Assembly (NCBI GenBank): GCA_026395055.1
Contig: JAPLZK010000004.1
Coordinates: forward strand, 18,805 to 82,804
Length of the DNA: 64,000 nt
Source of the DNA: Candidatus Uhrbacteria bacterium
GTDB taxonomy: Bacteria; Patescibacteriota; Patescibacteriia; UBA9934; GWF2-40-263
Direction: 5' to 3'
Part shown: positions 20,373 through 42,677 of the stretch, in pieces
How the letters are laid out: each line of letters opens with the position of its first letter
How positions within the stretch are numbered: the first letter of the stretch is position 1
Made by a program: the position numbers and the translations under genes
The notes under the pieces: model-generated
The model's database searches: none
Told to the model about the DNA's origin: nothing
The model's input: only the letters and a program-made list of their open reading frames with translations

Positions 20373-21539
20373 ATGTCCATGCAAGTCATTCATGTCCCAA
20401 ACACGCCGCCGGAAACCTTCTCAAAAAGCTTGTTTCTTGCTGGTCCGTCACCGCGCGATTCTGCGCATTATGATTGGCGACCGGAAGCCCTCAAGATTCT
20501 TGAAGAGCTCGGATATGACGGTGTCGTCTTTGTTCCGCTTCCGGTGGATCACAGCGATTGGCGTCATGGATTTGATGCGCAAGTGGATTGGGAAAAGAAG
20601 TATTTGGACATGTGTGACGTTGTGGTCTTTTGGATTCCGCGTGATTTGAAAACATTGCCGGCACTCACCACAAATGTGGAGTTCGGAATGTATTTTGAAT
20701 CTGGAAAAGTCGTTCTTGGCTATCCAGAAACCGCGACCAACATGCGATACATTTCTTCGCATGCGGAGAAACAACATATTCCACAGTTTCGTGATTTGCG
20801 TGAAACACTTGCGTGCGCTCTCGAGCGCATCGGGGAAGGCGCACTGCGAATCGGTGGTGAACGTGAAGTTCCGCTTCATATCTGGAAGATGAAATCGTTT
20901 CAGGCGTGGATGATGGCACAGAAAGCGGCGGGAAATCGTTTGGATGGCGCGCATCTTCTTTGGAATTTTCGTGTCGATCCGACAAAAGATCTGGTCTTTG
21001 CGTATGCACTTCGTGTGAACGTGTACATTGCGCGCGAGCATCGCAACAAGACAAACGAGTTCATTCTTTCTCGTCCAGACATCTCGTCGATCGTTGCATA
21101 TCATCGAACGACCGAGAATATTCTCGACGCAGAGATCGCGATTGTGCGTGAGTTTCGCTCGCCCGCATCGCTCGGTGACTGCTACATCCAGGAAGTCCCG
21201 GGTGGATCTTCTTGGAAGATTGAAGAAGACGCGTTCGAGACAGCGGCACACGAGCTCTCCGAAGAAACAGGATTCTCTGTTGCTTCGAAACGCCTGAAGT
21301 TTCTTGGTGCGCGCCAAGTTGCAGGAACGCTCTCAACGCACCTCGCGCACATGTTCGCCTGTGAGATCACTGCGGAAGAGATCGCTTACTTGCGCTCGCA
21401 AGATGGCGTCGCACATGGCGTGATCGAAGACACGGAACGAACGTACGTCGAGATCTACACCGTTCGACAACTTCTCGCGCGTCCGCTCACAGACTGGGCG
21501 AACCTTGGGATGATTCTGACAGCACTGCTGTCGGAGTAA
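20373..21539 (+). CDS. Fusion protein: nucleoside 2-deoxyribosyltransferase-like (Rcl/DNPH1-like) N-domain + C-terminal Nudix hydrolase
   Basis: LFLAGPSPRD...DMCDVVVFWIPRD...VEFGMYFESGKVVLGYP resembles the Rcl/NDT fold; Nudix box GSSWKIEEDAFETAAHELSEETGF. Confidence 0.55.
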   Translation: MSMQVIHVPNTPPETFSKSLFLAGPSPRDSAHYDWRPEALKILEELGYDGVVFVPLPVDHSDWRHGFDAQVDWEKKYLDMCDVVVFWIPRDLKTLPALTTNVEFGMYFESGKVVLGYPETATNMRYISSHAEKQHIPQFRDLRETLACALERIGEGALRIGGEREVPLHIWKMKSFQAWMMAQKAAGNRLDGAHLLWNFRVDPTKDLVFAYALRVNVYIAREHRNKTNEFILSRPDISSIVAYHRTTENILDAEIAIVREFRSPASLGDCYIQEVPGGSSWKIEEDAFETAAHELSEETGFSVASKRLKFLGARQVAGTLSTHLAHMFACEITAEEIAYLRSQDGVAHGVIEDTERTYVEIYTVRQLLARPLTDWANLGMILTALLSE

Positions 21540-21544
21540 GACGT

Positions 21545-21570
21545 AAGAAGCCAACATGGCTTCTTTTTTG
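21545..21570 (+). terminator. Intrinsic terminator
   Basis: AAGAAGCCA-aca-TGGCTTCTT plus a T-run. Confidence 0.7.
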
Positions 21571-21653
21571 TTCTCATGCATTGACGCAAGGCTCTTTTCC
21601 TGTTACATTCCCGCCTCGGGGATGGCTCGATGTTCTTTGGAAAAAGGAGTGCG

Positions 21654-21944
21654 ATGACACGCGAAGATGTGGCAAAGAAGATCCACTGGAGATATGTGAT
21701 TGGGTTTATGGGAATGACGAATGTTGTGGCGATTTTGCCGCAGCTCATCAAAGTGCTTGAGACGCACCAAACCAAGGACTTGTCCTTGGTCATGTTCTCA
21801 ACCATTCTTGCAATCCAGATTGCGTTTTCTGCGGACGGATTTTTCACCCGCAACAGAACGCTTTTTCTGAGCAACGCATGCGCGGCATGTTGTAACGCAT
21901 CGCTCATTTCTTTGGTCATGTACTTTCGGTCTTTCAACTCGTAG
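21654..21944 (+). CDS. PQ-loop / SemiSWEET-like small membrane transporter
   Basis: PQLIKVLETH PQ motif in a roughly 97-aa 3-TM protein; AAAGGAG SD. Confidence 0.5.
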   Translation: MTREDVAKKIHWRYVIGFMGMTNVVAILPQLIKVLETHQTKDLSLVMFSTILAIQIAFSADGFFTRNRTLFLSNACAACCNASLISLVMYFRSFNS

Positions 21945-22024
21945 GAGAAAACATGCTGCATTGGTTTAAGGTGTTGTTGCGAATGATTTGCATGCGTGTC
22001 CCATTCCTTCGTCCGTTTCTTGGA

Positions 22025-22741
22025 ATGCCCATGCTCCTTGTGTTCATTCGACACGCACAGTCGGTGAACAATAAGGCGTATGCCGGCAAAGTGTTTTTGG
22101 AAGCACATGATCAGGTTGCAAATGGGCATCGCCTTCCGGATCATCGTATTCCGCTTTCGGAAGAAGGGGAGTTTCAAGCGATCCAGAGCGGTCCGTTTCT
22201 ACGCATGAAGTTTGGCACACCAGACGCGGTGATCCATTCGGGACACGTGCGAACGCGTCAAACTTTGCATGGAATCATGGGGGCGTACGGTGGCGCGCAC
22301 ATTCCGATTCGCGAAGATCGCTTGTGGCGTGAGCGCGAAGGGGGGCACACGTACCTCATGTCGCGCGCGGAAGTGGAAGAAAACTTTCCCTATCAGCAGC
22401 CGTATTGGAATCTGGTGGGAGACTATTACGCACGCCCGGCTGGAGGCGAAAGTCTCGCAGATGTTCTTGAGAAAAGACTCACGCTCGCATTCGCGGATCT
22501 CTACAAACGGTTCGCAGGCAAGCGCGTGTTCATCTTCACACATGGTCGTGTGATCCAGTGCGCGCGAGCGTATCTTGATGAACTCACCCTTGAACAGTTC
22601 GAGGCGTATCTCAAATTTGTAGACGACGCCCCCAAGAACTGCTCCATCATGGTTTATAAGTACGACCCACACTTTGGTAGACTTGTGCTCGATGAGTACA
22701 ACACGGTTTGTTCAGAACCCTCTCAAGCGTTTGATCTATAA
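22025..22741 (+). CDS. Histidine phosphatase superfamily protein (phosphoglycerate mutase-like)
   Basis: LVFIRHAQS (RHG-type motif) and a downstream FTHGRV His. Confidence 0.5.
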   Translation: MPMLLVFIRHAQSVNNKAYAGKVFLEAHDQVANGHRLPDHRIPLSEEGEFQAIQSGPFLRMKFGTPDAVIHSGHVRTRQTLHGIMGAYGGAHIPIREDRLWREREGGHTYLMSRAEVEENFPYQQPYWNLVGDYYARPAGGESLADVLEKRLTLAFADLYKRFAGKRVFIFTHGRVIQCARAYLDELTLEQFEAYLKFVDDAPKNCSIMVYKYDPHFGRLVLDEYNTVCSEPSQAFDL

Positions 22742-22897
22742 GATCAACGCTTTTTTCTTTGAAAATTGGCGTTTTATTCCCTTTGTCTCTTGACAAAACG
22801 CCATTTTTCTGATAATTTATTGCGTTATCGAGCATGTGTTTCGATACGTTTTTTCGCACGGGGCGAAGAATTTCCTGCAGATAAGGAGACCTCTCAG

Positions 22898-23935
22898 ATG
22901 GCAAAGAAGACGTTTGGCCCCCTCGCACTTGTGTTCAAGCTTGGCCCGAAAATCGGAGCTGTGTGCTTGAAGCTTTTGAAGGGATTGAAGATCGGAAAGA
23001 TCGGTCTTGCCGCGGCATCGCTCGCGGCGTACTCCTACGTACTTACGTGGCAGTTCGCGTGTCTCATTCTGTTCATGCTGTTCGTTCACGAAAGTGGGCA
23101 CATCTGGGCGATGAAACGCTGTGGCATGCACACTAAAGGCATTTATTTCATTCCGTTCTTCGGCGCTGCTGCTGTAACGGATGAATCATTCAACTCGCGC
23201 AACGAAGAATCGTTCATTGCCATCATGGGACCGATTTGGGGGCTCGCCCTCTCGTTTCTCACCGCTCTCGTGTACGTCGCAACGGACAATCCGTTCTTTG
23301 CGGCCGCCGCAAGCTGGATGGCGATGGTGAATCTCTTTAATCTGCTGCCCATCAATCCGCTCGATGGCGGACGCATTCTGAAGTCGATTGCCTTTTCTGT
23401 GCACTCGCACCTCGGTTACGTCTTCCTTGGTGTTGGTGTGCTTGCAGCCGGCATTCTTGCCTACACGATGCATGTTGGATTGTTCGTCTTTCTCCTGATC
23501 GTCGGGGCTCTTGAGCTGTTGGGAGATTTGTGGAAGCAGCAGAAGACGGAACGGCCTGTGAAGAGTTTCGAACTCGGCGAACGTGCGCGCATTGGGATGT
23601 TCATGGAAGAGTTTTACGCAGGCGTTGAAGATGGGATTGCAAAAAGTCCTGATCTCTCCCGGCGCGAAGCAGAGATCCACCGAGATGAGCAACGCGAAGA
23701 GGGAGAAGCCATTCGCACGCGCATGCTCGAGAAGTTGCAGGAGGATTTGAACGTACGGCGTTCAAAGATGACTGCAGGCACGCATGTCATGCCTCCCATG
23801 ACCACGCGTCAGATCATCTGGGCGTCGTTCCTTTTCATTGCTGTTGCGGGGGTCCTCTACGGCATCATGAGCAGCATGAATCACGTTCCGGGTGCCGCGG
23901 CTGCGATGGAGATTCTCAAAGATCAGCCGTCGTAA
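22898..23935 (+). CDS. M50-family (site-2 protease-like) membrane metalloprotease
   Basis: HESGH (HExxH) in a TM helix and NLLPINPLDGGRIL (LDG motif); AAGGAGA SD. Confidence 0.65.
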   Translation: MAKKTFGPLALVFKLGPKIGAVCLKLLKGLKIGKIGLAAASLAAYSYVLTWQFACLILFMLFVHESGHIWAMKRCGMHTKGIYFIPFFGAAAVTDESFNSRNEESFIAIMGPIWGLALSFLTALVYVATDNPFFAAAASWMAMVNLFNLLPINPLDGGRILKSIAFSVHSHLGYVFLGVGVLAAGILAYTMHVGLFVFLLIVGALELLGDLWKQQKTERPVKSFELGERARIGMFMEEFYAGVEDGIAKSPDLSRREAEIHRDEQREEGEAIRTRMLEKLQEDLNVRRSKMTAGTHVMPPMTTRQIIWASFLFIAVAGVLYGIMSSMNHVPGAAAAMEILKDQPS

Positions 23936-23946
23936 GATAGATTCTA

Positions 23947-23976
23947 ACGGTCTCCATATGGAGCCGTTTTTTTATC
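23947..23976 (+). terminator. Intrinsic terminator
   Basis: CGGTCTCCAT/ATGGAGCCG hairpin plus a T7 run. Confidence 0.65.
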
Positions 23977-24007
23977 CACACAATACCGTTGACAAACTGG
24001 ATTTTTT

Positions 24008-30220: not shown

Positions 30221-30346
30221 GAGGGAATTATAGCAGAAAGTCCTGAAGTCGTGGAGTTGTGGAGTGTTGGACAGTGCATATTTTATTCCAATGAAAAACA
30301 CCCGCCGCAGCAAACACAGAATGTGTTGTTGGGACGGGTGTGAGGT

Positions 30347-30826
30347 TTACTTCTTGGCGATGACGGCCACCATTTCCGCGTATCTTTCGCAATCGATGTT
30401 GGTTTGCGAGATCAATCGATCACCATGTCCGTCCATCGTCCGGACCACACGTGCGCTGCACTGCGGTTCATTCTCGGTAGGCGTTTTGCACACAAAGAGC
30501 TCTATGTGTGTGGTTGCATTGCTCCAGGTGGAAACGCACAGAGTCGCGTCTGCACCGGGCGTGAGACGTTTGACGCTTGCCCTTGCGGTCTGGGTGATCG
30601 CGTCGGAGGGATCCACGGCCGGCTTGTTGCAGAGAGCCAATTTCGTCTCCGCATTGTCGGCGCGTGCTTTTTCGAACTTCAGATCCTCAACCAATTTTTC
30701 GTTGGTCTGTTGCAGCAGGTCGATGTGCGCTTGGTCGAGCCTCGCTTGTTTGATCGCTTCGGCGTTGTTGCAGCCGAATACGGACATGAGCAAGAGAATA
30801 CCGATCATCTTGATAAGAGCACGCAT
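30347..30826 (-). CDS. Putative lipoprotein (159 aa)
   Basis: Signal peptide with an LMSVFGC lipobox. Confidence 0.5.
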   Translation of the reverse strand: MRALIKMIGILLLMSVFGCNNAEAIKQARLDQAHIDLLQQTNEKLVEDLKFEKARADNAETKLALCNKPAVDPSDAITQTARASVKRLTPGADATLCVSTWSNATTHIELFVCKTPTENEPQCSARVVRTMDGHGDRLISQTNIDCERYAEMVAVIAKK

Positions 30827-30884
30827 GTTTGCCTCCTCAGTGTGCACGAGATGCCTCTCGAGCAGGGTTGAAATGAACATGTCG

Positions 30885-31568
30885 TTACACTGCCGGTTCG
30901 TCCTTCTTCGGTTCGAACTCGACCGCGTAGTAGCAGACTTCGACGCGATAGCCTTCGCCCTTGCGCACGTCGATGCGCATCAGGCCGGCCCATGCGTGTT
31001 CGAGTTCCTTGAGTTTTATCTCGAGGTCATCGAAGTTTTTGAAGCCGTACGGTTCGAGGTTGTTCTCGTAGAACTTGTCACTGTTACAACCACCACCTTT
31101 GGTGTTGCGTGCCATATCCTCGAGGTACCTCGGCAAGGTCCAGAAGCCGTCGAGCTCGCCCTTGTACCAACCGTTTTCGTTGGCGAACTTGCGACAGGAT
31201 TCCGGAATCCGGAACGCGAGTTCTTTCGCGAGATCCGTCCAGACCTTCATTGCTTCGGCCTCGAGTGCGGCCTTGCGTTCGATTGAACTCTTGAGCGACG
31301 CGACGATCTGGATCTTGAGCCGATTGAATCCGTGGAATCGATCGCACGCGCCTTCAACCGAATCGATTGTCCTCGTGTCGGGCTTGAACGTCCAGCGCAA
31401 GCCGTCTTTCAACAGGACGTGCATATACCCTGCTTCGTCTGGTGCATCGAATGTGACGCACCCGATCGTTTGCGTATAATCGTTGTATAGGCCATGTGGT
31501 CCGATCAATGAAAACACGATTGTCTTTCCTGCGAACCGATCGCGCAATGCTTCGACAGTGAGCTGCAT
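30885..31568 (-). CDS. Hypothetical protein (227 aa)
   Basis: AGGAAACC before the ATG; no motifs. Confidence 0.45.
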   Translation of the reverse strand: MQLTVEALRDRFAGKTIVFSLIGPHGLYNDYTQTIGCVTFDAPDEAGYMHVLLKDGLRWTFKPDTRTIDSVEGACDRFHGFNRLKIQIVASLKSSIERKAALEAEAMKVWTDLAKELAFRIPESCRKFANENGWYKGELDGFWTLPRYLEDMARNTKGGGCNSDKFYENNLEPYGFKNFDDLEIKLKELEHAWAGLMRIDVRKGEGYRVEVCYYAVEFEPKKDEPAV

Positions 31569-31629
31569 GGTTTCCTCCTAAGTGGACGAGGTGCCCCTCG
31601 ACGATTCGTTGTTGTCGAATCGATTTTAG

Positions 31630-31740
31630 CATCTCAGCTCCCACTCACGACCGTTTCGCGAAGGGGAGAAAGACCACGTCATTCACGAATGACGTGGGAG
31701 CGCTCGATAACATTCTCCGAAATGTTATCGAGCGAGAACT
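31630..31740. repeat. Island-2 element D, copy 1 (ATCTCAGCTCCCACTCACGACCGTTTCGCGAAGGGGAGAAAGA + two hairpins)
   Basis: Shares a roughly 40-nt core with 32170-32252 and 33040-33112. Confidence 0.65.
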
Positions 31741-32118
31741 TTACGAAGGTACCTCTGCAAGCGACCGCGTGGAAAGGAAAAGTAGCTTTGTAATGTCTTC
31801 AATGACGAGTTGAAACATGACGATGCAGAACAAGTCCTTTGCCGCCTCATTATCTCTCTTGATTGTATCGCCGGACGCTCCTAGGTTGGTGCAATGGAGA
31901 CTGCGGCAGAAGCCGTAATCCGACCTGTCGAGCGTGTATTCGTAAAGCCGTTTCCCATCACTGACAAGAATGCTGAAGCCTTCATACGGTTTTTCCGCGT
32001 GCTTGATTGCAATCGTGTCGCAACCATGTTCGTTCGGCCAACCGATGTCGTTCTCAAACAATCCACCGTCGAGGTTCTTGAACTTTTCGAGAATTTTCAG
32101 CAATTGTTCGCGTGACAT
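31741..32118 (-). CDS. Hypothetical protein (125 aa)
   Basis: AAAAGG SD upstream of ATG 32118; element D2 lies 50 nt upstream. Confidence 0.45.
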   Translation of the reverse strand: MSREQLLKILEKFKNLDGGLFENDIGWPNEHGCDTIAIKHAEKPYEGFSILVSDGKRLYEYTLDRSDYGFCRSLHCTNLGASGDTIKRDNEAAKDLFCIVMFQLVIEDITKLLFLSTRSLAEVPS

Positions 32119-32169
32119 TCTTTTGCCTTTTGTATGCGCGTTGTGTCGACGCATAGTGTATCGAACGAT

Positions 32170-32252
32170 TGATCTCAGCTTCCATTCGCGACCGTTTCGC
32201 GAAGGGGAGAAAGAGCTCGACGTGATCGCGAGGGGCGATCTGATCGAGTAAG
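32170..32252. repeat. Island-2 element D, copy 2
   Basis: GATCTCAGCTTCCATTCGCGACCGTTTCGCGAAGGGGAGAAAGAGCTCGACGTGATCGCGAGGGGCGATC. Confidence 0.65.
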
Positions 32253-32410
32253 AATGTGAATGAACGTTCTCTCTAGCACAAATCGAGCGAGGTCGCGACC
32301 GGCGCAGTTGCGCGCGGGCCGTCGCCTTCTTCTTTGGTGGATTTGCGGGAGAGCTTTGCATGGAGCAGTTCCAGAAACAATCGCAGCATGAGACTCCTTG
32401 TGCCGGCGAC

Positions 32411-32791
32411 TTAATGCGCGGGCTGGCTGTAGAAATCCGTGATGAACATCTTGCCATTCAAACGACCGCGGCCGAGCCAGACTCGGAGAATGTTCCCGTT
32501 TTTATGGCGGTACGTTCCTTCCGTCACGCCGATCCAATCCTGTTCACCGTTTACTTCGAGGAGCAAATGCCACTCGGCTGGGACGGTTTTGTAGCGCCAC
32601 ATTTTCGTTGCGGCAAACCAGGTGTAATCGAATTCTTGGTGTGCGGGCTTGAAGTCGTGATTGACGACGACTGCATCCGCGACTTCGAGTTCGACACTGA
32701 CCGTGTTGATCAGATGGTAGATACCAGCGACAACGACAGCCAAGACCAGAAGGCCGAGGAGTCCGAGAAGACCGATGACGAACCAATCCAT
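32411..32791 (-). CDS. Membrane-anchored hypothetical protein (126 aa)
   Basis: N-terminal TM helix (FVIGLLGLLGLLVLAVVVAGIY). Confidence 0.45.
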   Translation of the reverse strand: MDWFVIGLLGLLGLLVLAVVVAGIYHLINTVSVELEVADAVVVNHDFKPAHQEFDYTWFAATKMWRYKTVPAEWHLLLEVNGEQDWIGVTEGTYRHKNGNILRVWLGRGRLNGKMFITDFYSQPAH

Positions 32792-32843
32792 TTTTTCCTC
32801 TCTGTGCCGACCCGAGCTTTGGGTGTGCAAGAATTTATGGTGC

Positions 32844-32981
32844 TTAGCGGACCGTCCGCGGCACGTTATTCATTGGAACACTCACCACATGCGGCGGATG
32901 CCAGATGCGGTAGATTCGCGCGCACGTTTTGGGGACGAGCAGAGTGAAGAGAAGCAGAAAAAGTTTCTGTCGGTAGGACAT
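32844..32981 (-). CDS. Small hydrophobic peptide (45 aa)
   Basis: Strong AAGGAG SD 5 nt upstream of ATG 32981; it is below the ORF-track cutoff; element D3 lies upstream. Confidence 0.35.
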   Translation of the reverse strand: MSYRQKLFLLLFTLLVPKTCARIYRIWHPPHVVSVPMNNVPRTVR

Positions 32982-33039
32982 GAGACTCCTTTTTCGAGTT
33001 GTCTCTCAATGTCGATCAAAATGTTCGACGTTTTTTCGA

Positions 33040-33112
33040 ACTTCCATCCACGATACACATCGCGAAGGGGAGAAAGAGCTCGACGCGATCGCGAGAGGCG
33101 ACGTTGTCGAGC
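33040..33112. repeat. Island-2 element D, copy 3
   Basis: ...CGCGAAGGGGAGAAAGAGCTCGACGCGATCGCGAGAGGCGAC..., nearly identical to copy 2 over about 50 nt. Confidence 0.65.
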
Positions 33113-33133
33113 AAGATGGAAATGTGCGTTGTC

Positions 33134-33499
33134 TTAGTACTCCTCGTCATGGATGTAGATCATGACGAGCGCGCCGTTCTTTGACACGAGACCGCCGAGT
33201 GCTTCCACGAGCATCCGCGCTTCCTGGCCGGGCACATCGTCCGGTTCCGCAAGGTGCCACCGTATGTGGAAGTCATTGACGCCGAGGACGAGGGCCAGAT
33301 AGTGAGCGAGTTCTTTCTCGCTCTCGACTTGCGTGACGATGGCACGGACGCAGATTTGTCGCTCCGTTTGCGTCATGGTCTCGTAGGTCTTCCGCATGTT
33401 GAGGATGAGATGCTTGCCCATCAACTGAGTGAGCGTATCGCGGGACCGTGAACGATTCACAACTCGCTTGATGACTGGATTTTGCAGAACTGCAACCAT
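33134..33499 (-). CDS. Hypothetical protein (121 aa)
   Basis: AGGAG SD upstream of ATG 33499. Confidence 0.45.
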   Translation of the reverse strand: MVAVLQNPVIKRVVNRSRSRDTLTQLMGKHLILNMRKTYETMTQTERQICVRAIVTQVESEKELAHYLALVLGVNDFHIRWHLAEPDDVPGQEARMLVEALGGLVSKNGALVMIYIHDEEY

Positions 33500-33551
33500 G
33501 AATTCTCCTGTTGTCGACGAATTGAATCGTGGGCGTTGTTGCTGGTTGAAC

Positions 33552-33896
33552 TTACTCCGCGAGCAGATAATCCACGACGCGGCGGTAGGTGCGGGCGGCC
33601 TTGGCCTGATCCGTGACAAGTGTCCGTGTGCCAACTTGGCCACGATAGCCTTCGATGTTCGAATAGCGCACGCACTTGATCTCGCCCGCCTCTTCGAGGA
33701 CGCGCAGCGAGGCGTATGGTTGCTCCTTGTCTACGACGTAGATGGCGAAACCGTCTGATGTGAGGTCGAGCAGGAGCGGTGCTTCGGTCCGTTTCAGGAA
33801 CGCGAAGAGCGCTCTCCAGAACCGTTGCGCCGCTGGATCTTGATCGATCGCGTTGAAGTCAATCAAAACTTGTTGCACGTTCACGTGAATTTCCAT
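33552..33896 (-). CDS. Hypothetical protein (114 aa)
   Basis: The GCGAGATCGCGTCGGC dyad lies immediately upstream of the ATG. Confidence 0.45.
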   Translation of the reverse strand: MEIHVNVQQVLIDFNAIDQDPAAQRFWRALFAFLKRTEAPLLLDLTSDGFAIYVVDKEQPYASLRVLEEAGEIKCVRYSNIEGYRGQVGTRTLVTDQAKAARTYRRVVDYLLAE

Positions 33897-33929
33897 GCCG
33901 ACGCGATCTCGCGTAAGCGTTGTTCTCGA

Positions 33930-34226
33930 TCAATGCACCAAGCTCTGCGAACGTCGCAAAGCGGAACCCCATTCCTTCATTGCTTGGGTCCGGATCCAGA
34001 CCTCGAGGGTTTCACGCGAGCGCGAAGCCTTGAGGAGGTGTCCACCCCAAAAAATCGTATCACCCTCGATTGGGACCTCGAGGGTGTGTGTCTCCCAACC
34101 GACTTCGATGTCGATTGCGATCACGAGACCGCGTTGGTTGATCAGCCACTCTCCGTCCTTGGGTGCACCGGCGTGGATTTCCACGATGCGGCTGTTTGGC
34201 GGCATCACAATGGCGAGGTGTGCCAT
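33930..34226 (-). CDS. Hypothetical protein (98 aa)
   Basis: CGCGAAATCGCGTCGGC dyad followed by AAGGAG SD. Confidence 0.45.
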   Translation of the reverse strand: MAHLAIVMPPNSRIVEIHAGAPKDGEWLINQRGLVIAIDIEVGWETHTLEVPIEGDTIFWGGHLLKASRSRETLEVWIRTQAMKEWGSALRRSQSLVH

Positions 34227-34396
34227 TTAATATTCTCCTTGCCGACGCGATTTCGCGCGGGCGTGTCATGGTTATTTCTTAACTTGAGTCTTCGATCAAG
34301 AGAGATAATCGAATGCTCGAGAAAAGCCATGTCGTTACAGGAACGACATGGAAGGCTCGATGCTCGTCATGAGTGACAAGGTGTCGAGTGGGAATG

Positions 34397-34621
34397 CTAG
34401 GCGCAGAGCAGGCGCGCCAGGTTGGCGTCGAACTGGTGGGGTTGTTCGTCGTCACGAACGTCGAGTCGCGACACCCGTTCGCGCAGTTCGGTTGCGATCA
34501 TCGCGTCCTCGCCGTCGATGAGGTGTGGGCGATGCCGGAACTCGAACTCGCGGCGCGTGATGACGCGATCGCTCGGACGGTAGACGCGACGCGAACGATT
34601 GGGACTGGAATTGGAACGCAT
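34397..34621 (-). CDS. Hypothetical protein (74 aa)
   Basis: AGGAG SD upstream of the ATG. Confidence 0.4.
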   Translation of the reverse strand: MRSNSSPNRSRRVYRPSDRVITRREFEFRHRPHLIDGEDAMIATELRERVSRLDVRDDEQPHQFDANLARLLCA

Positions 34622-34712
34622 GAGTCTCCTGTGCTCCGATTTTTATTCGGCGCAAGTCTTGAATCTTCTCCTCAGACCGACCATCACCATGCGACATTCG
34701 CAAATGCTGGGC

Positions 34713-34813
34713 GGTATCGAGTCCGCGAGCAGTGAAGCTGCTCGCGGCAAGTCGAAATGATTTCAAAGAGCGAAACTCGTTCAGCGCGAAGCTGATTGAG
34801 AGGGTGAGCGGGT
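34713..34813. repeat. Island-2 element C, copy a (~105-nt conserved element with covarying hairpin, loop TGAAGC)
   Basis: CCGCGAGCAG-TGAAGC-TGCTCGCGG hairpin, then TTTCAAAGAGC...GCGCGAAGCT..GAGAGG. Confidence 0.7.
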
Positions 34814-34824
34814 TGTGCGGAAGC

Positions 34825-35034
34825 CTACGCGCGCCACTTGGTGCGGCGGAAGTTCTTCCAGGTGCGGCTGTTGCGCGGACGATTGATGTCATCGTACGCA
34901 CTCGGGACAGTGCTCGTGGTGCGGCGATTCTTGAGCTTGAAGCTCACAAAGTCGCCGTCGAACGCATCCACTTCGAGCGCGTGACGCGCACGAATCTCCT
35001 GGGTCGTATTCATGCCGCGATGAGGATCATACAT
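34825..35034 (-). CDS. Hypothetical protein (69 aa), weak start context
   Basis: ORF only; weak SD. Confidence 0.3.
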   Translation of the reverse strand: MYDPHRGMNTTQEIRARHALEVDAFDGDFVSFKLKNRRTTSTVPSAYDDINRPRNSRTWKNFRRTKWRA

Positions 35035-35100
35035 GTTGAGTACCTGAGAAGGCGTGATTGCCTATCTCATGACGGGCCTCCTTTGTGCGGTGTTGATTGC

Positions 35101-35358
35101 CTAGTTGTGTTCGCGTTCCCAGCGACGGTTTTTGCTTTCCGGCTCTGCGATCGCACGTTCGATCACCTTGTCGATGTGCGGCAGGAATCCTTCGGGCTGC
35201 GTCGTGGGCCAGCTCTTCTCGATCGCTTCTTGGTAGAGGTAATCGCGAATCTGTTCACGCGTCATCGGCTCGGTGATGTAACCGTCCGAGACCGTAGTCC
35301 ACATGCGGAAATGCAACGAACCATCTTTCTTCGTACGCGCATGCACAACGTGTGCCAT
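35101..35358 (-). CDS. Hypothetical protein (85 aa)
   Basis: GTGCGAAATCGCATCGGC dyad followed by AAAGGAAA upstream of the ATG. Confidence 0.45.
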   Translation of the reverse strand: MAHVVHARTKKDGSLHFRMWTTVSDGYITEPMTREQIRDYLYQEAIEKSWPTTQPEGFLPHIDKVIERAIAEPESKNRRWEREHN

Positions 35359-35405
35359 GTTTTCCTTTATGTGCCGATGCGATTTCGCACGGGCGGGTTG
35401 GTTGA

Positions 35406-35630
35406 TTACTTCTTGTACTGCTTGTTTCCGACCATGAGTCCGATCATGCCGAGGGCGGCGTAGGTCGGCAGCATCATGTAGTAGCCAGTCTTCTGTATGA
35501 ACACGAGCGACGTGATCTCCTCGCCCTTCGCGGTTTTTTCGATGAGATCGACGGCGTCCTTGTTCAACGTGTAGCCGCAAAGCTGCGACAGGAGGAAGCA
35601 CAACAGACCAAGCAAAATATTCGTAAGCAC
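35406..35630 (-). CDS. Small 2-TM membrane protein (74 aa, GTG start)
   Basis: GGAG 8 nt upstream of the GTG; CGCGAGATCGCGTCGAC dyad upstream. Confidence 0.35.
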   Translation of the reverse strand: MLTNILLGLLCFLLSQLCGYTLNKDAVDLIEKTAKGEEITSLVFIQKTGYYMMLPTYAALGMIGLMVGNKQYKK

Positions 35631-35704
35631 TGGCAGACTCCACTGTCGACGCGATCTCGCGTAGACGTTCTCACTCTGCTTCGCGCACCACGTATCCGCC
35701 AATC

Positions 35705-35812
35705 GGAAGTGATGTTCGAAGTCGAGTCCCTGTTTGTGAAGCAAACAGGGCAAGACGGTTTTCAAAGAGCAACACTCTCATTTGCGCGAAGCTATGTGAG
35801 AGGGGAGTCGAA
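35705..35812. repeat. Island-2 element C, copy b
   Basis: GAAGTGATGTTCGAAGTCGAGTC-CCTGTTTG-TGAAGC-AAACAGGG...TTTTCAAAGAGC...CTCTCATTTGCGCGAAGCTATGTGAGAGG. Confidence 0.75.
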
Positions 35813-35816
35813 GGTG

Positions 35817-36762
35817 CTAGGCGGCCTCCTGCATGTTGAAGTGTTCGTTGTTGAGTTCGAATTCTTCCATCATGCGAGCTTCCGCTTGCGCCCTCATCTT
35901 GTCGACGTACGTGTTCCATGCCGCCACTTCGCGCTCTCGCTTGGTGAACGCTGCAGACATTTCGTCGCCGATCGTCCACGCGCAGTGGAACTTCGGCTTG
36001 TGACGCGCCCACTGCTTGGTCGCGTTGTCGGGGAAGTTCTTCTGTTCGAAGTCCCAGATGTGGATCCAACGATCGTCACCCGGGATTTTGTTCTTCTTTT
36101 CTTCGGCCATGATGTTGTAAACGCGGTCGGAATGACACCCTAGCCCGCGACGGCGCTTGTTCTTCCAGGACAATCCGTTGCGCTGCCGATTACGCTGGTT
36201 CTTTTTCGAACCATTCAGCTTTTGATACCGCGCTTCCGTTGTCGCGAGCTTCTCCTCGCCTTCGAGGTTCGACTCGATGTACACGTGGCCGCGCGGGTCG
36301 CACTTGGGCTTGTCGCGCTGCTCGTCTTTGACCTGCTCTTCGGCCGCTGCGCGATCCATCCACCAGAACCGCATGTGCAGTTCCGTGATTTTGCGCTGCA
36401 GGTTCATGCGGGCATTCCACTCCCGGTTCTCGCGCAGCGTGTACATCATCGCGTGATGGGTGATCTGCACGTGATCGAGATCGAGATCGTTGTCGTCATC
36501 CTCGACCAAGTCGCTTTCGTCGCGCTTGGCCCAGTGGACTTCGATGCCGTTCCCGCGACCGGGTTTTTTCGGCGTGATGTCCTTCGTCATGTTCGCCACC
36601 CAGCGCTTGTCCATTTCCGCGAGACGTTCCTCGTCGAGGATGAACCGTGGCGCGCGTGCCATCGACATCTGACGCGGCTCGCCCTTGTACGGGTCGAACC
36701 ACTTCGTGCCGATGATGCCACGACGACCGCTCGAGGACTTTCCGAAACTCAGCATGAGAATC
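35817..36762 (-). CDS. Hypothetical charged protein (315 aa)
   Basis: AAGGA SD before ATG 36762. It has highly charged blocks (DDDNDLDLD; KNQRNRQRN) and no family assignment. Confidence 0.45.
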
Positions 36763-36883
36763 CTTATGGCCGACCCAATATTGGGCGGGCGATCTTTCCA
36801 CCGTAGTTTTTTACGAAGGTGGATGTTGTTGTTTACACATTCAGGAACCAGACTCAGTCCGCCCACCACCGCACGAGAGACGT

Positions 36884-36987
36884 GAAGTGATGTTCGAAGT
36901 CGAGTCTCCCAGTTGTGAAGCAACTGGGAGCAGGACGAAGATTTCAAAGGAGCTAGGCTCTCATTCGCGCGAAGCTAAGTGAGAGGA
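36884..36987. repeat. Island-2 element C, copy c
   Basis: GAAGTGATGTTCGAAGTCGAGTC-TCCCAGTTG-TGAAGC-AACTGGGA...TTTCAAAGGAGC...CTCTCATTCGCGCGAAGCTAAGTGAGAGG. Confidence 0.75.
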
Positions 36988-37009
36988 AAATGTGTTGATG
37001 ATGGCTCGA

Positions 37010-37555
37010 TTACTTCTGGGCGGTGTCCTTCGGAAGCACCAGCTTGAAGTCGATGACCTTGCCGTCGGCGCTGCGCACGAACTCGTACTTCGCGAGATCG
37101 GGGCCGTAGTAGGGGGCGTCTTTCTTCTTGAACCAGATCGCTCCATCAGACACGCTGAGATGGTGTGTCTGGAACCAGCTGTTGCGGTAGGTGCACTTTT
37201 CGTACGCCGTGTCCTTGTACTTCTTCTCGCACTCGTCGTTTCCGGCCTTGACGGTGACGAGTGCGTCGAAGGTGTTCATGAGCGCGATGTGCTCCAGATC
37301 GGACGCGGTCTTGGTCGCTTCGAGCTGCTTGCTCAATTCCGCGACCTTGTCCGTCGCCGTCTTCAACTCGGTCGTCGTTTCGGTCAGTTTTTCTTTGGCC
37401 ACTTTGCCGGCGTCGAGCTGATCGGCCACTTCCAGTGCGTGGGCGTTGTAGCCTTGCTCCACGATCACGTTGCCGATGGCCCTGATACCGAAGCCGGCAC
37501 CAACCACCAGAACAATTGCACCCAAGAACGTCAGAACGGGATAGAAACCCTTCAT
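37010..37555 (-). CDS. Membrane-anchored coiled-coil protein (181 aa)
   Basis: N-terminal TM helix followed by a heptad-rich segment; AAGGAT SD. Confidence 0.45.
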   Translation of the reverse strand: MKGFYPVLTFLGAIVLVVGAGFGIRAIGNVIVEQGYNAHALEVADQLDAGKVAKEKLTETTTELKTATDKVAELSKQLEATKTASDLEHIALMNTFDALVTVKAGNDECEKKYKDTAYEKCTYRNSWFQTHHLSVSDGAIWFKKKDAPYYGPDLAKYEFVRSADGKVIDFKLVLPKDTAQK

Positions 37556-37630
37556 GTGCTTATCCTTTTTTGATTTGGCGCGTCCATTGCGCCGCAAGAC
37601 ACTCTCACCGAACACTACTCTTTGACTGCC

Positions 37631-37738
37631 GCAGAGTTATGTTCAGAGTCGAGTCCCGCAGCTGTGAAGCAGTTGCGGGCAGACCTGGTTTTCAAAGAGC
37701 GATTCTCTCATTCGCGCGAGGCTACGTGAGAAAGGGGG
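37631..37738. repeat. Island-2 element C, copy d
   Basis: TTATGTTCAGAGTCGAGTC-CCGCAGCTG-TGAAGC-AGTTGCGGG...TTTTCAAAGAGC...CTCTCATTCGCGCGAGGCTACGTGAGAAAGG. Confidence 0.75.
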
Positions 37739-37939
37739 TCATTTGTTGTGTGTGTCGCGGTGTGCGTCGCGTTTCAAGATGCCGTCGCGGATCTTCATGC
37801 GATCCTTGTCGACGCGCTTCTCATGGAAACGCTGATCATTGTTCATACCGGCCGCGATGCGAGCCTTGCGAACCGCCGCGATCGTGTCTTTCACGACCTG
37901 GGGGGTATTCCTTTTCTTCTTGTTTTTGTGCTTTGCCAC
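37739..37939 (-). CDS. Small highly basic protein (66 aa), possible nucleic-acid binding
   Basis: Lys/Arg-rich (MAKHKNKKKRNTPQ...). Confidence 0.4.
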   Translation of the reverse strand: MAKHKNKKKRNTPQVVKDTIAAVRKARIAAGMNNDQRFHEKRVDKDRMKIRDGILKRDAHRDTHNK

Positions 37940-38000
37940 GATCTTTTGCCTTTTTGCTCCGCGTACATAGCGCCGAGCGAACGTATTTCGATGAATAACA

Positions 38001-38054
38001 GAAAAACCGATACTTGTTTATTTCAACGAGAGAAATACTCAAATATCGGTTTTC
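38001..38054. repeat. Nested inverted repeat at the island-2 right boundary (possible bidirectional terminator)
   Basis: AAAACCGATA ... TATCGGTTTT 10-bp arms with internal ATTTC/GAAAT arms, flanked by A and T runs. Confidence 0.5.
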
Positions 38055-38274
38055 AAAAATAGGGCCCTCGACACGTTCGGGCAATATGATTGATTTTTTT
38101 ACTATCGATCTATCCTTTTCAGGATATATGGGACTGGATAGTGCAGCTCTCTCCCCATGGTTGTAAAAGAGGTAAGACGGAACAGACGTTTTTTTGACGA
38201 CTATTCAATCTAAGCATGGACATACTATATCACTTTTTGGCGCTTTTGTCAAGACCTGAGTGCAAAAAAATCGC

Positions 38275-40548: not shown

Positions 40549-41961
40549 CTAGTATGCCCCTTTTCTGAAAATAACAACGATCGGTGTCTTTAGGAGAATA
40601 TACAAATCTAACCACGGGCTCCAGTGTTCAATGTAGTAGGTGTCGAGTCTGACTTCTTCATCGAAGTCGAGGTCTGCGCGGCCGGAGATTTGTGCGAGGC
40701 CGGTGATTCCAGGTTTGATGGTGAGAACTTTTTTGTGTTCCGGTTTGTATTTTGCGACTTCTTCTGGTAAGTGTGGGCGTGGTCCAACGAGACTCATTTT
40801 TCCTGTGAGGACAAGAAAGAATTCAGGAAGCTCATCAATGGAGAATTTGCGAATAAATGTGCCGACGCGTGTGACACGAGGATCATTTGCGATTTTGACC
40901 ATGGGTGTTCCTTTGCGCGTATCTTTTTCCGCGAGTTCGCGATAGCGCATGTTATGTGTGTGTGGAACCATGGATCTAAATTTGAAATAGGGAAATGGTT
41001 TTCCACCTTGGCCAATGCGTGTCATGCGCTTATTATCATCGGATCGAGAAAAGAGAATGGGGCCACGCGAATCGAGTTTGATGGCGATTGCGGTGATCAA
41101 CATGATCGGCGAGGTGAGAATGATGAGAATGAGGGATGCAACAATATCAAACAAACGTTTATAAATGGCTCCCCAGCCATCAAGCGGGGTCTTTTGAACT
41201 TCAATCACGGGAATTCCGGAGAACATGTGAATCACGGATCTGCCGACAGCGGTTGCGAAAAGATCGGCAGAATATCGAAAGCCTAAATGTTCGACGTCCG
41301 TGAATGCGATGAGGGCGAGCGTTGTGTTTTTACTTGCTTCTGGATCGGCGAGGAGAACTTCATCAATTTTATCTTGATCTTTGAGAGTGCGTAATTTTTT
41401 TGCGACCGCATCATCAAATGTTTTGAATGCGGCAACGATTTGTAATCCGAAGCGTGGTTTTTTCTCAAAGATTCCTTTAAGGGTATCGGCTGTGTCGTTT
41501 GATCCAATGATCGCAATACGAATCACACCAATGCCCATAGACATGAGGGAGCGTTGTAATCCTCGAATGACAAGACGTCCAAGAGAAACAAAGACCATCG
41601 AGAAGAACCAGGCAACAAGCGCGATGAATCGAGAATCAAAAAATGTGCGTGAGAAGAATAGAATGGAAAACACAAGTGCCATCGAAGTAGATGTTGCGAG
41701 CAGCACGCGTGAAAGTTCTTTTGCGATGGATCGTCGATGTGTGGAATACAGTCCAGCGGATGCGAACACGGCGATCCAAATAAATAGACTTGGTAAAAGA
41801 ATGGTGATGTATTGTTGGAGAGTGAGCGCAAAGATAACAGGACGAATGCTTGTGAAGTAGGGGAGGAAACGCGAATAGTACGCAGCAATGCCGGCGGCAA
41901 CGAGTGCGAGATAATCGAGAGGAACAAGGGCAAGTGTAAAGGCGAGTTCAGAGCGTTTCAT
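40549..41961 (-). CDS. Polyprenyl-phosphate hexose-1-phosphate transferase (WbaP/bacterial sugar transferase family)
   Basis: N-terminal multi-TM region; C-terminal [20 protein letters not shown]...[21 protein letters not shown] sugar-transferase domain. Confidence 0.75.
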
Positions 41962-42027: not shown

Positions 42028-42254
42028 CGAGGCGAGATTCTTTGGGTTCCAAAGGAGTGATCTGTAAGCCGAATTTTGTCTACCCTGTCTTTCAACAGAG
42101 GAGGCGATCATCTATCTTGTCTCATTGTCGCCAATGAGATCGTGCGAGCTACCAAATTTGCTCTTTCACCGAAAAGGGTTTGCCACACATGCATGTCACC
42201 ATGCAGCGAGATACGTAATCTTGCGATACCGTATCACTTTTCACCTTTCATTTT

Positions 42255-42412
42255 GCGAAGCAAAATGACCCTGAGCCTGTCGCCCTTCAAATTTTTCAGG
42301 GCGACCATGAGTCCGATCGAATGGTCGAAGGGTGCATGCGCATAGTATGGGCATAAGCTTGGACCCTTCGACTCACTGCGTTCGCTCAGGATAATTTTGC
42401 TTCGCAAAATTA
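42255..42412. repeat. ~160-bp nested inverted-repeat element (MITE-like or structured RNA)
   Basis: Outer arms TTTTGCGAAGCAAAAT..CCTGAGC and GCTCAGG..ATTTTGCTTCGCAAAA, with inner hairpins GTCGCCC/GGGCGAC and GTCGAAGGGT/ACCCTTCGAC. Confidence 0.55.
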
Positions 42413-42677
42413 GTATTGTCTCTGTGGTACTTTCCCTAAGGTTGGTATTCGGGATCAAAGCGTGAATTGCTCCAACGCCTCGCGCTCGAATGCGTATCCT
42501 TGGTTGTCGTTAACAACTTTTCTTGTTGTCGTATATTGCTATGCGACAGGTGTTCGGACTTTCCTCCCAGACGTTTGTCCAGGTAATCACCCGATCATCC
42601 TTTAGAACGTGGGGAAGCATACCAGTTTCAAGGGGAAATGTCAATGGAATTTGGGTAAGAAAAAACCGCACCATGGA

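Follow-up and report, generated by a model that had tools for sequence, protein, structure and literature searches.

A family of hairpins next to Shine-Dalgarno sequences in a hypervariable gene island of Candidatus Uhrbacteria

The window analysed here is a stretch of 64,000 nucleotides from contig JAPLZK010000004.1 of a Candidatus Uhrbacteria metagenome-assembled genome (MAG). It contains an 8-kb island (~30330–38260; island 2) with a GC content of 52–57%, compared with 42–47% in the flanking host DNA. The island is bracketed by two conserved GT4 glycosyltransferase genes, and every one of its genes is encoded on the minus strand. Four of the genes are preceded by an inverted repeat of the form CGCGA-NN-TCGCG. 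This dyad, its relatives in other islands, and the genes that follow them are the subject of this report.

The same GT4 pair brackets islands of 2.9–10.7 kb in other Uhrbacteria (loci L001, L016, L017, and L019), and a more distant relative (L020) has one GC-rich gene at the island position. The gene content of this fixed chromosomal locus is hypervariable in at least five Uhrbacteria genomes. It varies widely from island to island, and the intergenic elements are better conserved than the genes: elements common to the islands are up to 97% identical, compared with only 75–81% for the glycosyltransferase genes on either side. The island proteins are all ORFans, and comparison with Pfam, PHROGs, and NCBIfam returned only sub-threshold noise. 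A viral contig collection contains neither a relative of the 312-amino-acid (aa) island protein nor the 20-mer of an intergenic element designated type A; therefore, there is no evidence of a phage origin of the island. The AlphaFold2 model of the 312-aa family is unusable (pLDDT 48), and a profile search of the PDB produced no match for it. A full-text literature search on Uhrbacteria hypervariable islands and boxA sequences returned nothing relevant. Spurious GC-rich open reading frames (ORFs) confounded a greedy clustering of the island ORFs, which was not used. The array of island genes appears to be read from a single promoter of the sigma-70 type (Table 1).

Exact matches to GCGARATCGCRTCGRC are located on the minus strand of the window at 33897–33912, 34241–34256, 35373–35388, and 35645–35660, in each case just upstream of a minus-strand ORF. 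Shuffling of the whole window (n = 100) yields a mean of 0.64 matches, and none of the shuffled sequences reaches the observed count. In a stricter comparison with a first-order Markov model of the GC-rich island alone, the four sites matching YGCGANNTCGCR stand against approximately 0.24 expected, and the 16-mer appears in none of 500 island simulations. Generic palindromes with the 5-2-5 layout occur in the island at background level (14 vs 10 ± 3 expected), and the signal is therefore specific to this motif. The preliminary description of the window had reported the dyad at no fewer than four island genes, and all four are present at frequencies that exclude chance. It had also considered that the dyad might be as frequent at random positions of the island; inside the island it is found at the four sites only, and one additional CGCGANNTCGCG lies outside it, at 40930.

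The conserved unit is larger than the dyad and extends 5 nt past its end. The unit includes paired flanks with the consensus GYYYR upstream and TCGRC downstream, and in the window copies it ends 0–5 nt before the Shine-Dalgarno sequence. Placement of the dyad directly on the ribosome-binding sites, as first proposed, thus holds only in so far as the dyads are near the starts, since they adjoin the 5′ side of the Shine-Dalgarno sequence without overlapping it. The start contexts given for the four genes contain the motifs, but their spacings were slightly off and the sequence of copy 3 differs, being TGCGA-AA-TCGCA with a compensated outer pair. The spacings are TCGGC-AAGGAG-N8-ATG for copy 2, TCGGC-ACAT-AAAGGAAAAC-ATG for copy 3, and TCGAC-AGTGGAG-N7-GTG for copy 4. 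The context of gene 33552–33896 is doubtful, as its ATG abuts the motif and has no Shine-Dalgarno sequence. Translation of this gene probably starts at 33884, at an in-frame GTG 12 nt further downstream, which is preferred because it fits the spacing of the family better (other copies, for example that of L019, TCGGCATGGAGAATCATG).

As judged from the comparison of the islands, CGCGA-NN-TCGCG is the local upper stem of a family of hairpins, here named type C. The members have the form AAC-GCCYG-[stem of 3–7 bp and loop, variable]-TCGGC-A; a Shine-Dalgarno sequence comes next, and the start codon is 10–20 nt downstream. From the base up, the hairpin is formed of a 3-bp lower stem, a 1×1 pyrimidine–C mismatch, a G-U or A-U pair, and the upper stem of variable sequence and length (3–7 bp). 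Between the two flanks the order is G-C, C-G, C-G, the Y×C mismatch, and G-U. The loop of 2–7 nt varies freely (AAAT, AGAT, GT, TA, AAA, AACAC, AAAAA, and others). The hairpins are 21–26 nt long, and the stem ends 0–6 nt before the Shine-Dalgarno sequence.

In related islands other palindromes take the place of this one: CCCAAGTTTGGG, CCCCGCCTTGGCGGGG, CCCAAAAAGGG, CGACAAAGTCG, CGTCATGGACG, and CGCAGTCTGCG. The equivalents in L001 are of the form CAACC-GCCCG-[X]-TCGGCA, with a Shine-Dalgarno sequence and ATG following, in which X is CCCCRCC-TT-GGCGGGG, CCC-AAAAA-GGG, CCCATGATGAGGG, or CGC-AACAC-GCG. The replacement is also seen in front of orthologous genes: the window and L001 each have an 85-aa gene of this pair (76% identity), and the upper stems, TGCGA-AA-TCGCA and CCC-AAAAA-GGG respectively, are entirely different between identical flanks. 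The flanks are compensated within the window as well, as GTCTA...TCGAC in copy 4 and GCTTA...TCGGC in copy 1. Because the conserved flanks are 11–16 nt apart in linear DNA, they become adjacent only when the element is folded. The preliminary description had offered an RNA hairpin as one of two options, and this option is supported by the comparison, since the sequence of the palindrome is swapped while self-complementarity, flanks, and distance to the start are retained.

A covariance model trained on ten type C copies was used to search approximately 209 kb of sequence, consisting of the window and the related loci. The search returned 22 matches of at least 26.7 bits, a number in which some sites are counted more than once because contigs overlap; the next-best score is 18.4. 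All of the strong matches are inside islands and in sense orientation, and none is outside the islands. Nine of them, including copy 5 of the window, were absent from the training set, and each of these nine is separated by 10–15 nt from a downstream start codon that has a Shine-Dalgarno sequence, information to which the model is blind. Among 19 distinct copies, standard pairs occupy 97.4% of the cells, compared with 29–38% when the partners are slid relative to each other. Double-sided changes are present in five of the eight pairs (for example GC:11/CG:8 and AU:5/CG:5/GC:5), and the covariation score of 0.45 is reached by none of 500 shuffles, which give 0.16. The minimum-free-energy structure contains (((.(((((....))))).))) in all ten native contexts and leaves the Shine-Dalgarno sequence unpaired. 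No type C copy has a match in Rfam at the gathering score, nor any overlapping match at E ≤ 5.

A subfamily, C2, has the form GCTCG-[GCG...CGC]-GGAGC-A. Its architecture is the same, with a compensated lower stem (U-A for C-G) and a shifted mismatch, and a regular-expression (regex) census found about ten copies in related islands, besides the window copy preceding the first island gene (37739–37939), which encodes a basic 66-aa protein. All 19 + 10 copies have either GCCYG/TCGGC or GCTCG/GGAGC as the base of the stem. The G-U pair is conserved in 16 of the 19 copies; on the opposite strand it corresponds to an A×C mismatch.

Most genes of the island carry a hairpin of type C design directly 5′ of the Shine-Dalgarno sequence, and the genes downstream of the hairpins are mutually unrelated. 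Copies 1 and 3 begin 11 nt past the stop codons of genes 33930–34226 and 35406–35630, respectively; copy 1 precedes gene 33552–33896, and copy 3 is 14 nt before the ATG of gene 35101–35358. Copy 4 directly follows a type A element and is 14 nt before the GTG of gene 35406–35630, and its L003 orthologue (1280–1296) precedes a different gene. Copy 5, missed in the preliminary description, precedes gene 35817–36755, whose conserved ATG (MLSFGKS...), a start that is fixed by alignment, is 13 nt downstream. Across the family the distance to the downstream start codon is tight (10–20 nt, mostly 12–15), whereas that to the upstream stop codon is loose (10–219 nt); therefore, the element belongs to the initiation region of the downstream gene.

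Table 1. Positions of hairpins, other elements, and genes in the window
Feature	Position	Strand	Description
Hypervariable GC-rich ORFan island	30330..38260	-	between the two GT4 glycosyltransferase genes
Type C copy 1	33897..33918	-	GCTTA-CGCGA-GA-TCGCG-TCGGC; exact match; covariance 36.0 bits; fold (((.(((((....))))).)))
Type C copy 2	34241..34262	-	GCCCG-CGCGA-AA-TCGCG-TCGGC; then AAGGAG-N8-ATG of gene 33930-34226; covariance 39.0 bits; predicted fold
Type C copy 3	35373..35394	-	GCCCG-TGCGA-AA-TCGCA-TCGGC; exact match; covariance 40.6 bits
Type C copy 4	35645..35666	-	GTCTA-CGCGA-GA-TCGCG-TCGAC; covariance 35.7 bits; lower stem U-A replacing C-G
Type C copy 5	36769..36790	-	GCCCG-CCCAA-TA-TTGGG-TCGGC; covariance 28.0 bits, E = 5e-5
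Variant hairpin C2	37956..37978	-	GCTCG-GCG-CTATGTA-CGC-GGAGC; regex census; fold ((((.(((.......))).))))
Related hairpin	34633..34653	-	GCG-CCGA-ATAAAAA-TCGG-AGC; then A-CAGGAG-ACTC-ATG of gene 34397-34621; predicted fold
Degenerate type C	33508..33540	-	AAC-GCCCA-CGA-TTCAAT-TCG-TCGAC; upstream of gene 33134-33502; weak covariance match, 12 bits; hairpin not in predicted minimum-free-energy fold
Degenerate type C	32801..32834	-	CACCC-AAAGCTC-GGG-TCGGCA-CAGAGAGGA; upstream of membrane-protein gene 32411-32791; weak match, 11.3 bits; predicted fold
ORFan gene, 114 aa	33552..33896	-	downstream of copy 1
ORFan gene, 98 aa	33930..34226	-	downstream of copy 2
ORFan gene, 85 aa	35101..35358	-	downstream of copy 3; L001 orthologue
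Small membrane-protein gene, 74 aa	35406..35630	-	downstream of copy 4
Largest island gene, 312 aa, ORFan family	35817..36755	-	downstream of copy 5
Promoter, sigma-70 type	38224..38252	-	TTGACA-17-TATAGT, extended TG; sole strong one on island coding strand; conserved in L001, L016, L017
Conserved leader	38003..38166	-	small covarying RNA motif ~38124-38166, then intrinsic terminator hairpin 38003-38053
Type A element	37600-37745, 36850-37000, 35667-35830, 34640-34815	-	also in L001, L003, L004, L016, L017, and others
Type B element	33035-33125, 32172-32260, 31631-31700	-	also L001 8248-8335, 9423-9510, 10347-10396; L048

The hairpins are not tied to particular genes. In the window CGCGA-GA-TCGCG precedes the genes of 114 and 74 aa, and in L003 it precedes a 96-aa gene; the C2 hairpin GCGCATGACGC precedes the large protein in L001 and L002 and a secreted protein in L016. 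The window and L003 are 95% identical across the type A and type C stretch and differ by two gene-sized indels. One of them, consisting of hairpin 3, its Shine-Dalgarno sequence, and the 85-aa gene, is present in the window only and is bounded by AATCAAC direct repeats. The other is the 96-aa gene, which is present in L003 only, between the hairpin and the membrane-protein gene, and one of its junctions is exactly at the 3′ base of the hairpin. Because unrelated genes follow the same hairpin and are gained or lost in this manner, the hairpin and the Shine-Dalgarno sequence behave as a portable module. The hairpin may be a preferred breakpoint.

The structure of type C is kept while its sequence turns over, its orientation and start spacing are constant, and its occurrence is restricted to the islands. 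It is best explained, probably if far from certainly, as a cis-acting stem-loop of the mRNA that forms, together with the Shine-Dalgarno sequence, a portable module used by unrelated ORFan genes. Action at the level of the mRNA is most likely, rather than service as a DNA site for a repressor, because the orientation is constant, the spacing to the start is tight, and the G-U pair is conserved. We infer that the hairpin acts after transcription, on each cistron. It is unlikely to be a promoter, because the variable stem occupies the place of a -10 element.

Two routes of action appear likeliest. In processed or read-through mRNA, the hairpin could shield the ends, besides marking the 5′ limit of the translation-initiation region. 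Alternatively, it could be a docking site for a shared RNA-binding factor, a route to which the conserved lower stem, wobble pair, and mismatch point. A conserved stem base beside a free upper stem would be expected if the base were read by a common factor, be it a protein, a ribonuclease, or the ribosome. The coordination of cassette gene expression by the dyad, put forward in the preliminary description, is possible.

According to the folding predictions, the hairpin does not work by base-pairing with the Shine-Dalgarno sequence. Hairpins that sequester a Shine-Dalgarno sequence, as in translational attenuators and RNA thermometers, have it or the start codon paired in the stem, whereas here it lies past the stem and is unpaired in the predicted folds. 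The masking of the ribosome-binding site, which had been suggested as the way in which an RNA hairpin might act, is not supported by this arrangement, nor by destruction of the hairpin in silico, after which the Shine-Dalgarno sequence is about as accessible as before.

Several observations weigh against action of the type C hairpin in the mRNA or limit what can be said of it. The alignment of the 19 copies was partly fitted to the covariance model, so that the pair counts are somewhat inflated; the conclusion on the structure is robust because the slid controls and the independent matches support it. The level at which the hairpin acts is what we infer from its conservation. The hairpin is predicted to be as stable on one strand as on the other (-10.7 kcal/mol each), and thermodynamics thus does not pick the mRNA strand; the conserved G-U pair alone does. 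Scrambling of the 5′ arm in silico shifts the predicted accessibility of the Shine-Dalgarno sequence only marginally, from 0.57 to 0.55 (p = 0.096), and a role as a passive insulator is therefore without support. No RNA-binding protein was identified among the island proteins by Pfam, PHROGs, or NCBIfam. The junction of the 96-aa gene at the hairpin base fits a role at the DNA level as well.

Stem-loops in comparable positions include mRNA stabilisers and protective hairpins, such as the ompA and aprE leaders, the cryIIIA STAB-SD, the malE-malF REP hairpins, and the RNase III-processed early mRNAs of T7. Like type C, they are stable stem-loops beside strong Shine-Dalgarno sequences or between cistrons, with the Shine-Dalgarno sequence outside the stem. 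They are found in single genes or genome-wide, whereas type C is a multi-copy family with a lower stem that is conserved in sequence and contains a mismatch, and its processing is conjectural. Translational operators to which proteins bind at the ribosome-binding site or immediately before it, such as the thrS operator, the MS2 coat-protein hairpin, and lambda boxB, are also small hairpins within the footprint of the 30S subunit. In these operators the conserved determinant is a loop or a bulge, whereas the loop of type C is free to vary. The non-canonical features of type C, the G-U pair and the 1×1 mismatch, suggest that it is recognised by a factor.

A different role of type C, as a junction or recombination site in DNA, would explain the hypervariable gene content at the fixed locus, and it accords with the conservation of the intergenic elements above that of the genes, with identical hairpins in front of unrelated genes, and with the joining of the extra gene of L003 at a hairpin base. 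Such a site would fold in single-stranded DNA or extrude as a cruciform and mark the points of gain, loss, or exchange of cassettes, events that could be due to a recombinase whose gene is elsewhere, to template switching, or to recombination at short homologies; integron attC sites and the PeSL (promoter-early stem-loop) cassettes of T4-like phages would be its analogues. The equal stability of the two strands and the attC-like design, with a conserved stem base and a variable palindromic centre, point in the same direction. However, no integrase or other recognisable recombinase is present among the island genes, none of which has such a match in Pfam, PHROG, or NCBIfam (the search covered the islands only), the second indel is joined at AATCAAC direct repeats and not at the hairpin, and the tight spacing of 10–20 nt to the start codon would be superfluous. 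A site of this kind is therefore considered unlikely.

The resemblance to integron attC sites extends to the position of the hairpins between promoterless genes, in an array of one direction with a single upstream promoter, and to the conservation of structure and stem base around a variable centre. The attC stem-loops are reported to influence, in mRNA, the translation of the next cassette (PMC8876359). However, attC sites are 57–141 nt long, with L″/L′ boxes and extrahelical bases, whereas type C is far shorter, at 21–26 nt, and has a single 1×1 mismatch. The R″ (RYYYAAC) and R′ (GTTRRRY) core of attC is absent from type C, and no GTT/AAC core is found in the 19 + 10 copies. Furthermore, type C is tied to the downstream Shine-Dalgarno sequence, whereas attC is tied to the 3′ end of the upstream cassette.

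In T4-type phages, the regulatory cassettes known as PeSL are conserved, are located between ORFan genes, and appear to mediate modular shuffling (PMC2839356, PMC4122927). They resemble type C in being short, in their position in hyperplastic ORFan regions, in being better conserved than the genes, and in seemingly travelling with or between genes. In contrast to type C, which is formed of a hairpin and a Shine-Dalgarno sequence and has neither promoter hexamers nor a U-tail, a PeSL combines a sigma-70 early promoter with a terminator stem-loop. The host of PeSL is a phage, whereas type C is carried by the chromosome of a bacterium of the Candidate Phyla Radiation (CPR).

It is conceivable, but doubtful, that types C, A, and B are parts of an undescribed CPR gene-cassette system. 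It would consist of a fixed platform of promoter, structured leader, and terminator and an array of ORFan genes, in which the mini-hairpins would be both recombination or junction sites and initiation modules, as an analogue of the integron without a recognisable integrase or attC.

The position of a GC-rich stem-loop between cistrons could also suggest a transcriptional pause site, attenuator, or terminator that sets polarity along the array, and the presence of terminator-like hairpins in the island (type B and the leader terminator) is in keeping with this, as is a hint of antitermination, the boxA-like motif of the type A elements. It is nevertheless improbable. In intrinsic terminators a U-tract directly follows the hairpin, whereas type C is followed by A/C (CA) and then by the purine-rich Shine-Dalgarno sequence. 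Canonical U-tails are present on terminators of the locus, namely the leader hairpin of the window and the insert-closing hairpins of L047 and L020. A terminator scan picked up no type C copy, and the spacing is locked to the downstream start codon and not to the upstream stop codon. Lambda nut sites (boxA + boxB) have a conserved boxB loop, which an N-type protein recognises, and a boxA a few nucleotides upstream of it, whereas the loops of type C vary freely; the boxA-like GCTCTTTGAAA and the constant-loop hairpin after it belong to the separate type A element.

Little likelihood is likewise assigned to a selfish or relic palindromic repeat, similar to REP or MITE, that has no role in expression and was copied along with the Shine-Dalgarno sequence. 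Type C is short, palindromic, multi-copy, and intergenic, and its common flanks could reflect common descent. However, REP and BIME elements are spread genome-wide in both orientations, with a head sequence and a RAYT, whereas all type C matches of at least 26 bits are in islands, in sense orientation only, and at a fixed distance from a start codon; the remaining 56 kb of the window and the locus flanks contain none. Neither a RAYT or transposase gene nor a REP-type head sequence is present, and the pairing has been kept through complete replacement of the sequence.

The other option of the preliminary description, a double-stranded operator for a dimeric transcriptional repressor, could account for the four near-identical inverted repeats near gene starts in the window, but it is highly improbable and largely refuted by the comparative data, since the half-site is conserved neither across the family nor between orthologues, the conserved flanks have a variable spacing and are joined only by folding, most copies have no neighbouring promoter (the coding strand has a single sigma-70-like one), the two copies that start 11 nt past a stop codon leave no room for a promoter, and no helix-turn-helix or ribbon-helix-helix protein was detected in the island of the window.

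Because type C differs in these respects from attC, PeSL, REP, intrinsic terminators, attenuators, and nut/boxB sites, and belongs to no Rfam family, it is classed as an intercistronic mRNA stem-loop of the initiation region. Hairpins adjacent to Shine-Dalgarno sequences are common as a class, but type C is a multi-copy family supported by covariation, absent from Rfam, and confined to islands. Alongside it are a dedicated promoter–leader platform and three or more further intergenic elements that are structured and conserved. If these modules control the cassette genes or move with them, they would show how uncultivated CPR bacteria with reduced genomes express and shuffle novel genes. Type C, being compact and having a wobble pair and a mismatch that are both conserved, would then also be of use to RNA biologists in tests for a binding partner. 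The island is unusual in combining a promoter–leader platform with four structured intergenic families among shuffled ORFans in a CPR bacterium.

The leader downstream of the island promoter contains a small motif, UGGG-GAGAGA-[4-bp covarying stem, loop NGCUAUC]-CCCA, which is followed by a canonical intrinsic terminator. Counterparts are located at L001 1274–1487, L016 5860–6010, L017 11565–11760, and L019 1075–1190. Three pairs of the motif covary across five genomes, and it has no match in Rfam. The leader looks like a gate of the riboswitch or attenuator type for the whole island. Its interpretation as a leader peptide was dropped, because the ATG is not conserved and the stem covaries.

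Type A is a structured intergenic element of approximately 150 nt that begins right after stop codons. Its parts are, in order, CCCTCTCAC, AGCYTCGCGCGAATGAGAG, GCTCTTTGAAA, a hairpin whose stem covaries and whose loop, CTTCA, is constant, ACTCGACTTCGAACATCAC, a second hairpin of variable sequence, and GTGGTG..CGATGAGAGT. Of the 27 pairs predicted by RNAalifold, ten have compensatory changes; CTCTCA, TGAGAG, and CTCTTT could also pair with one another in alternative ways. Type A matches no Rfam family. The sequence GCTCTTTGAAA resembles boxA of rRNA operons and lambda. Type A could be a nut-like antitermination RNA or a riboregulatory RNA.

Type B elements contain a hairpin that has the conserved base GCTCRAC/GTYGAGC, in which G-C is compensated to A-T, and a variable interior. 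The hairpin is followed by a terminator-like TCTTTCT and a second hairpin (CTTCGCGA...TCGCGAA). Type B folds well beyond shuffled sequence (z = -3.6 and -3.2). The base in one copy (GCTCAAC...GTTGAGC) resembles the R″/R′ consensus of attC, although the length is only about 35 nt. The dyad CGCGATCGCGTCGAGC of type B repeats, which has no spacer, was considered as a homologue of type C and rejected, because it is the 3′ half of the inner stem in a different, terminator-like hairpin.

Another conserved arrangement is a mini-ORF of two codons (ATG-AGA/AAA-TAG/TAA), which has AAGGAGG as a very strong Shine-Dalgarno sequence and after which GGCAATCACGCC comes. The arrangement is positioned at 35062–35083 (minus strand) in the window and at L001 4975–5055, L003 ~1880–1925, L047 1161–1249, and L048 1321–1400. 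The mini-ORF is conserved upstream of a 66–69-aa gene (34825–35034), which itself lacks a good Shine-Dalgarno sequence, and this suggests start-stop or reinitiation control.

The 69-aa protein encoded by the latter gene and the 312-aa protein (35817–36755) share a basic motif, NRxRN..(S/T)WKNxRR, encoded at 34844–34884 and 36151–36191 on the minus strand. Both protein families are conserved across the islands, and the 66-aa protein of the first gene is extremely basic. Any of the three could be a nucleic-acid-binding partner of the intergenic elements. At the distal end of the L001 island (11182–11912) there is an unannotated ORF with a helix-turn-helix-like terminus ...LRQADVAKRLGITQQAYQKLERIGANPTLETIVKLGQALNIDFNLVAM, similar to antitoxins of the HicB/XRE type. 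It is not present in the island of the window.

Stop codons in the islands are very often trailed within a few nucleotides by (A)TCAAC(C/A) or CAACAAC, whichever element comes next, for example at 35400–35408 and 35091–35100 in the window and at 7818–7830 and 9104–9120 in L001. This short repeat is the same as that bounding one of the cassette indels between the window and L003.

Two further stretches of the window, ~8000–12000 and ~21000–24000, have a raised GC content (0.50–0.60 vs ~0.44); they contain no type C matches and have no sequence in common with island 2. Outside the island, the window also encodes a bacterial RNase P RNA (42048–42602, minus strand). It is 555 nt long and matches the full class A model of 367 positions; therefore, it must hold large insertions.

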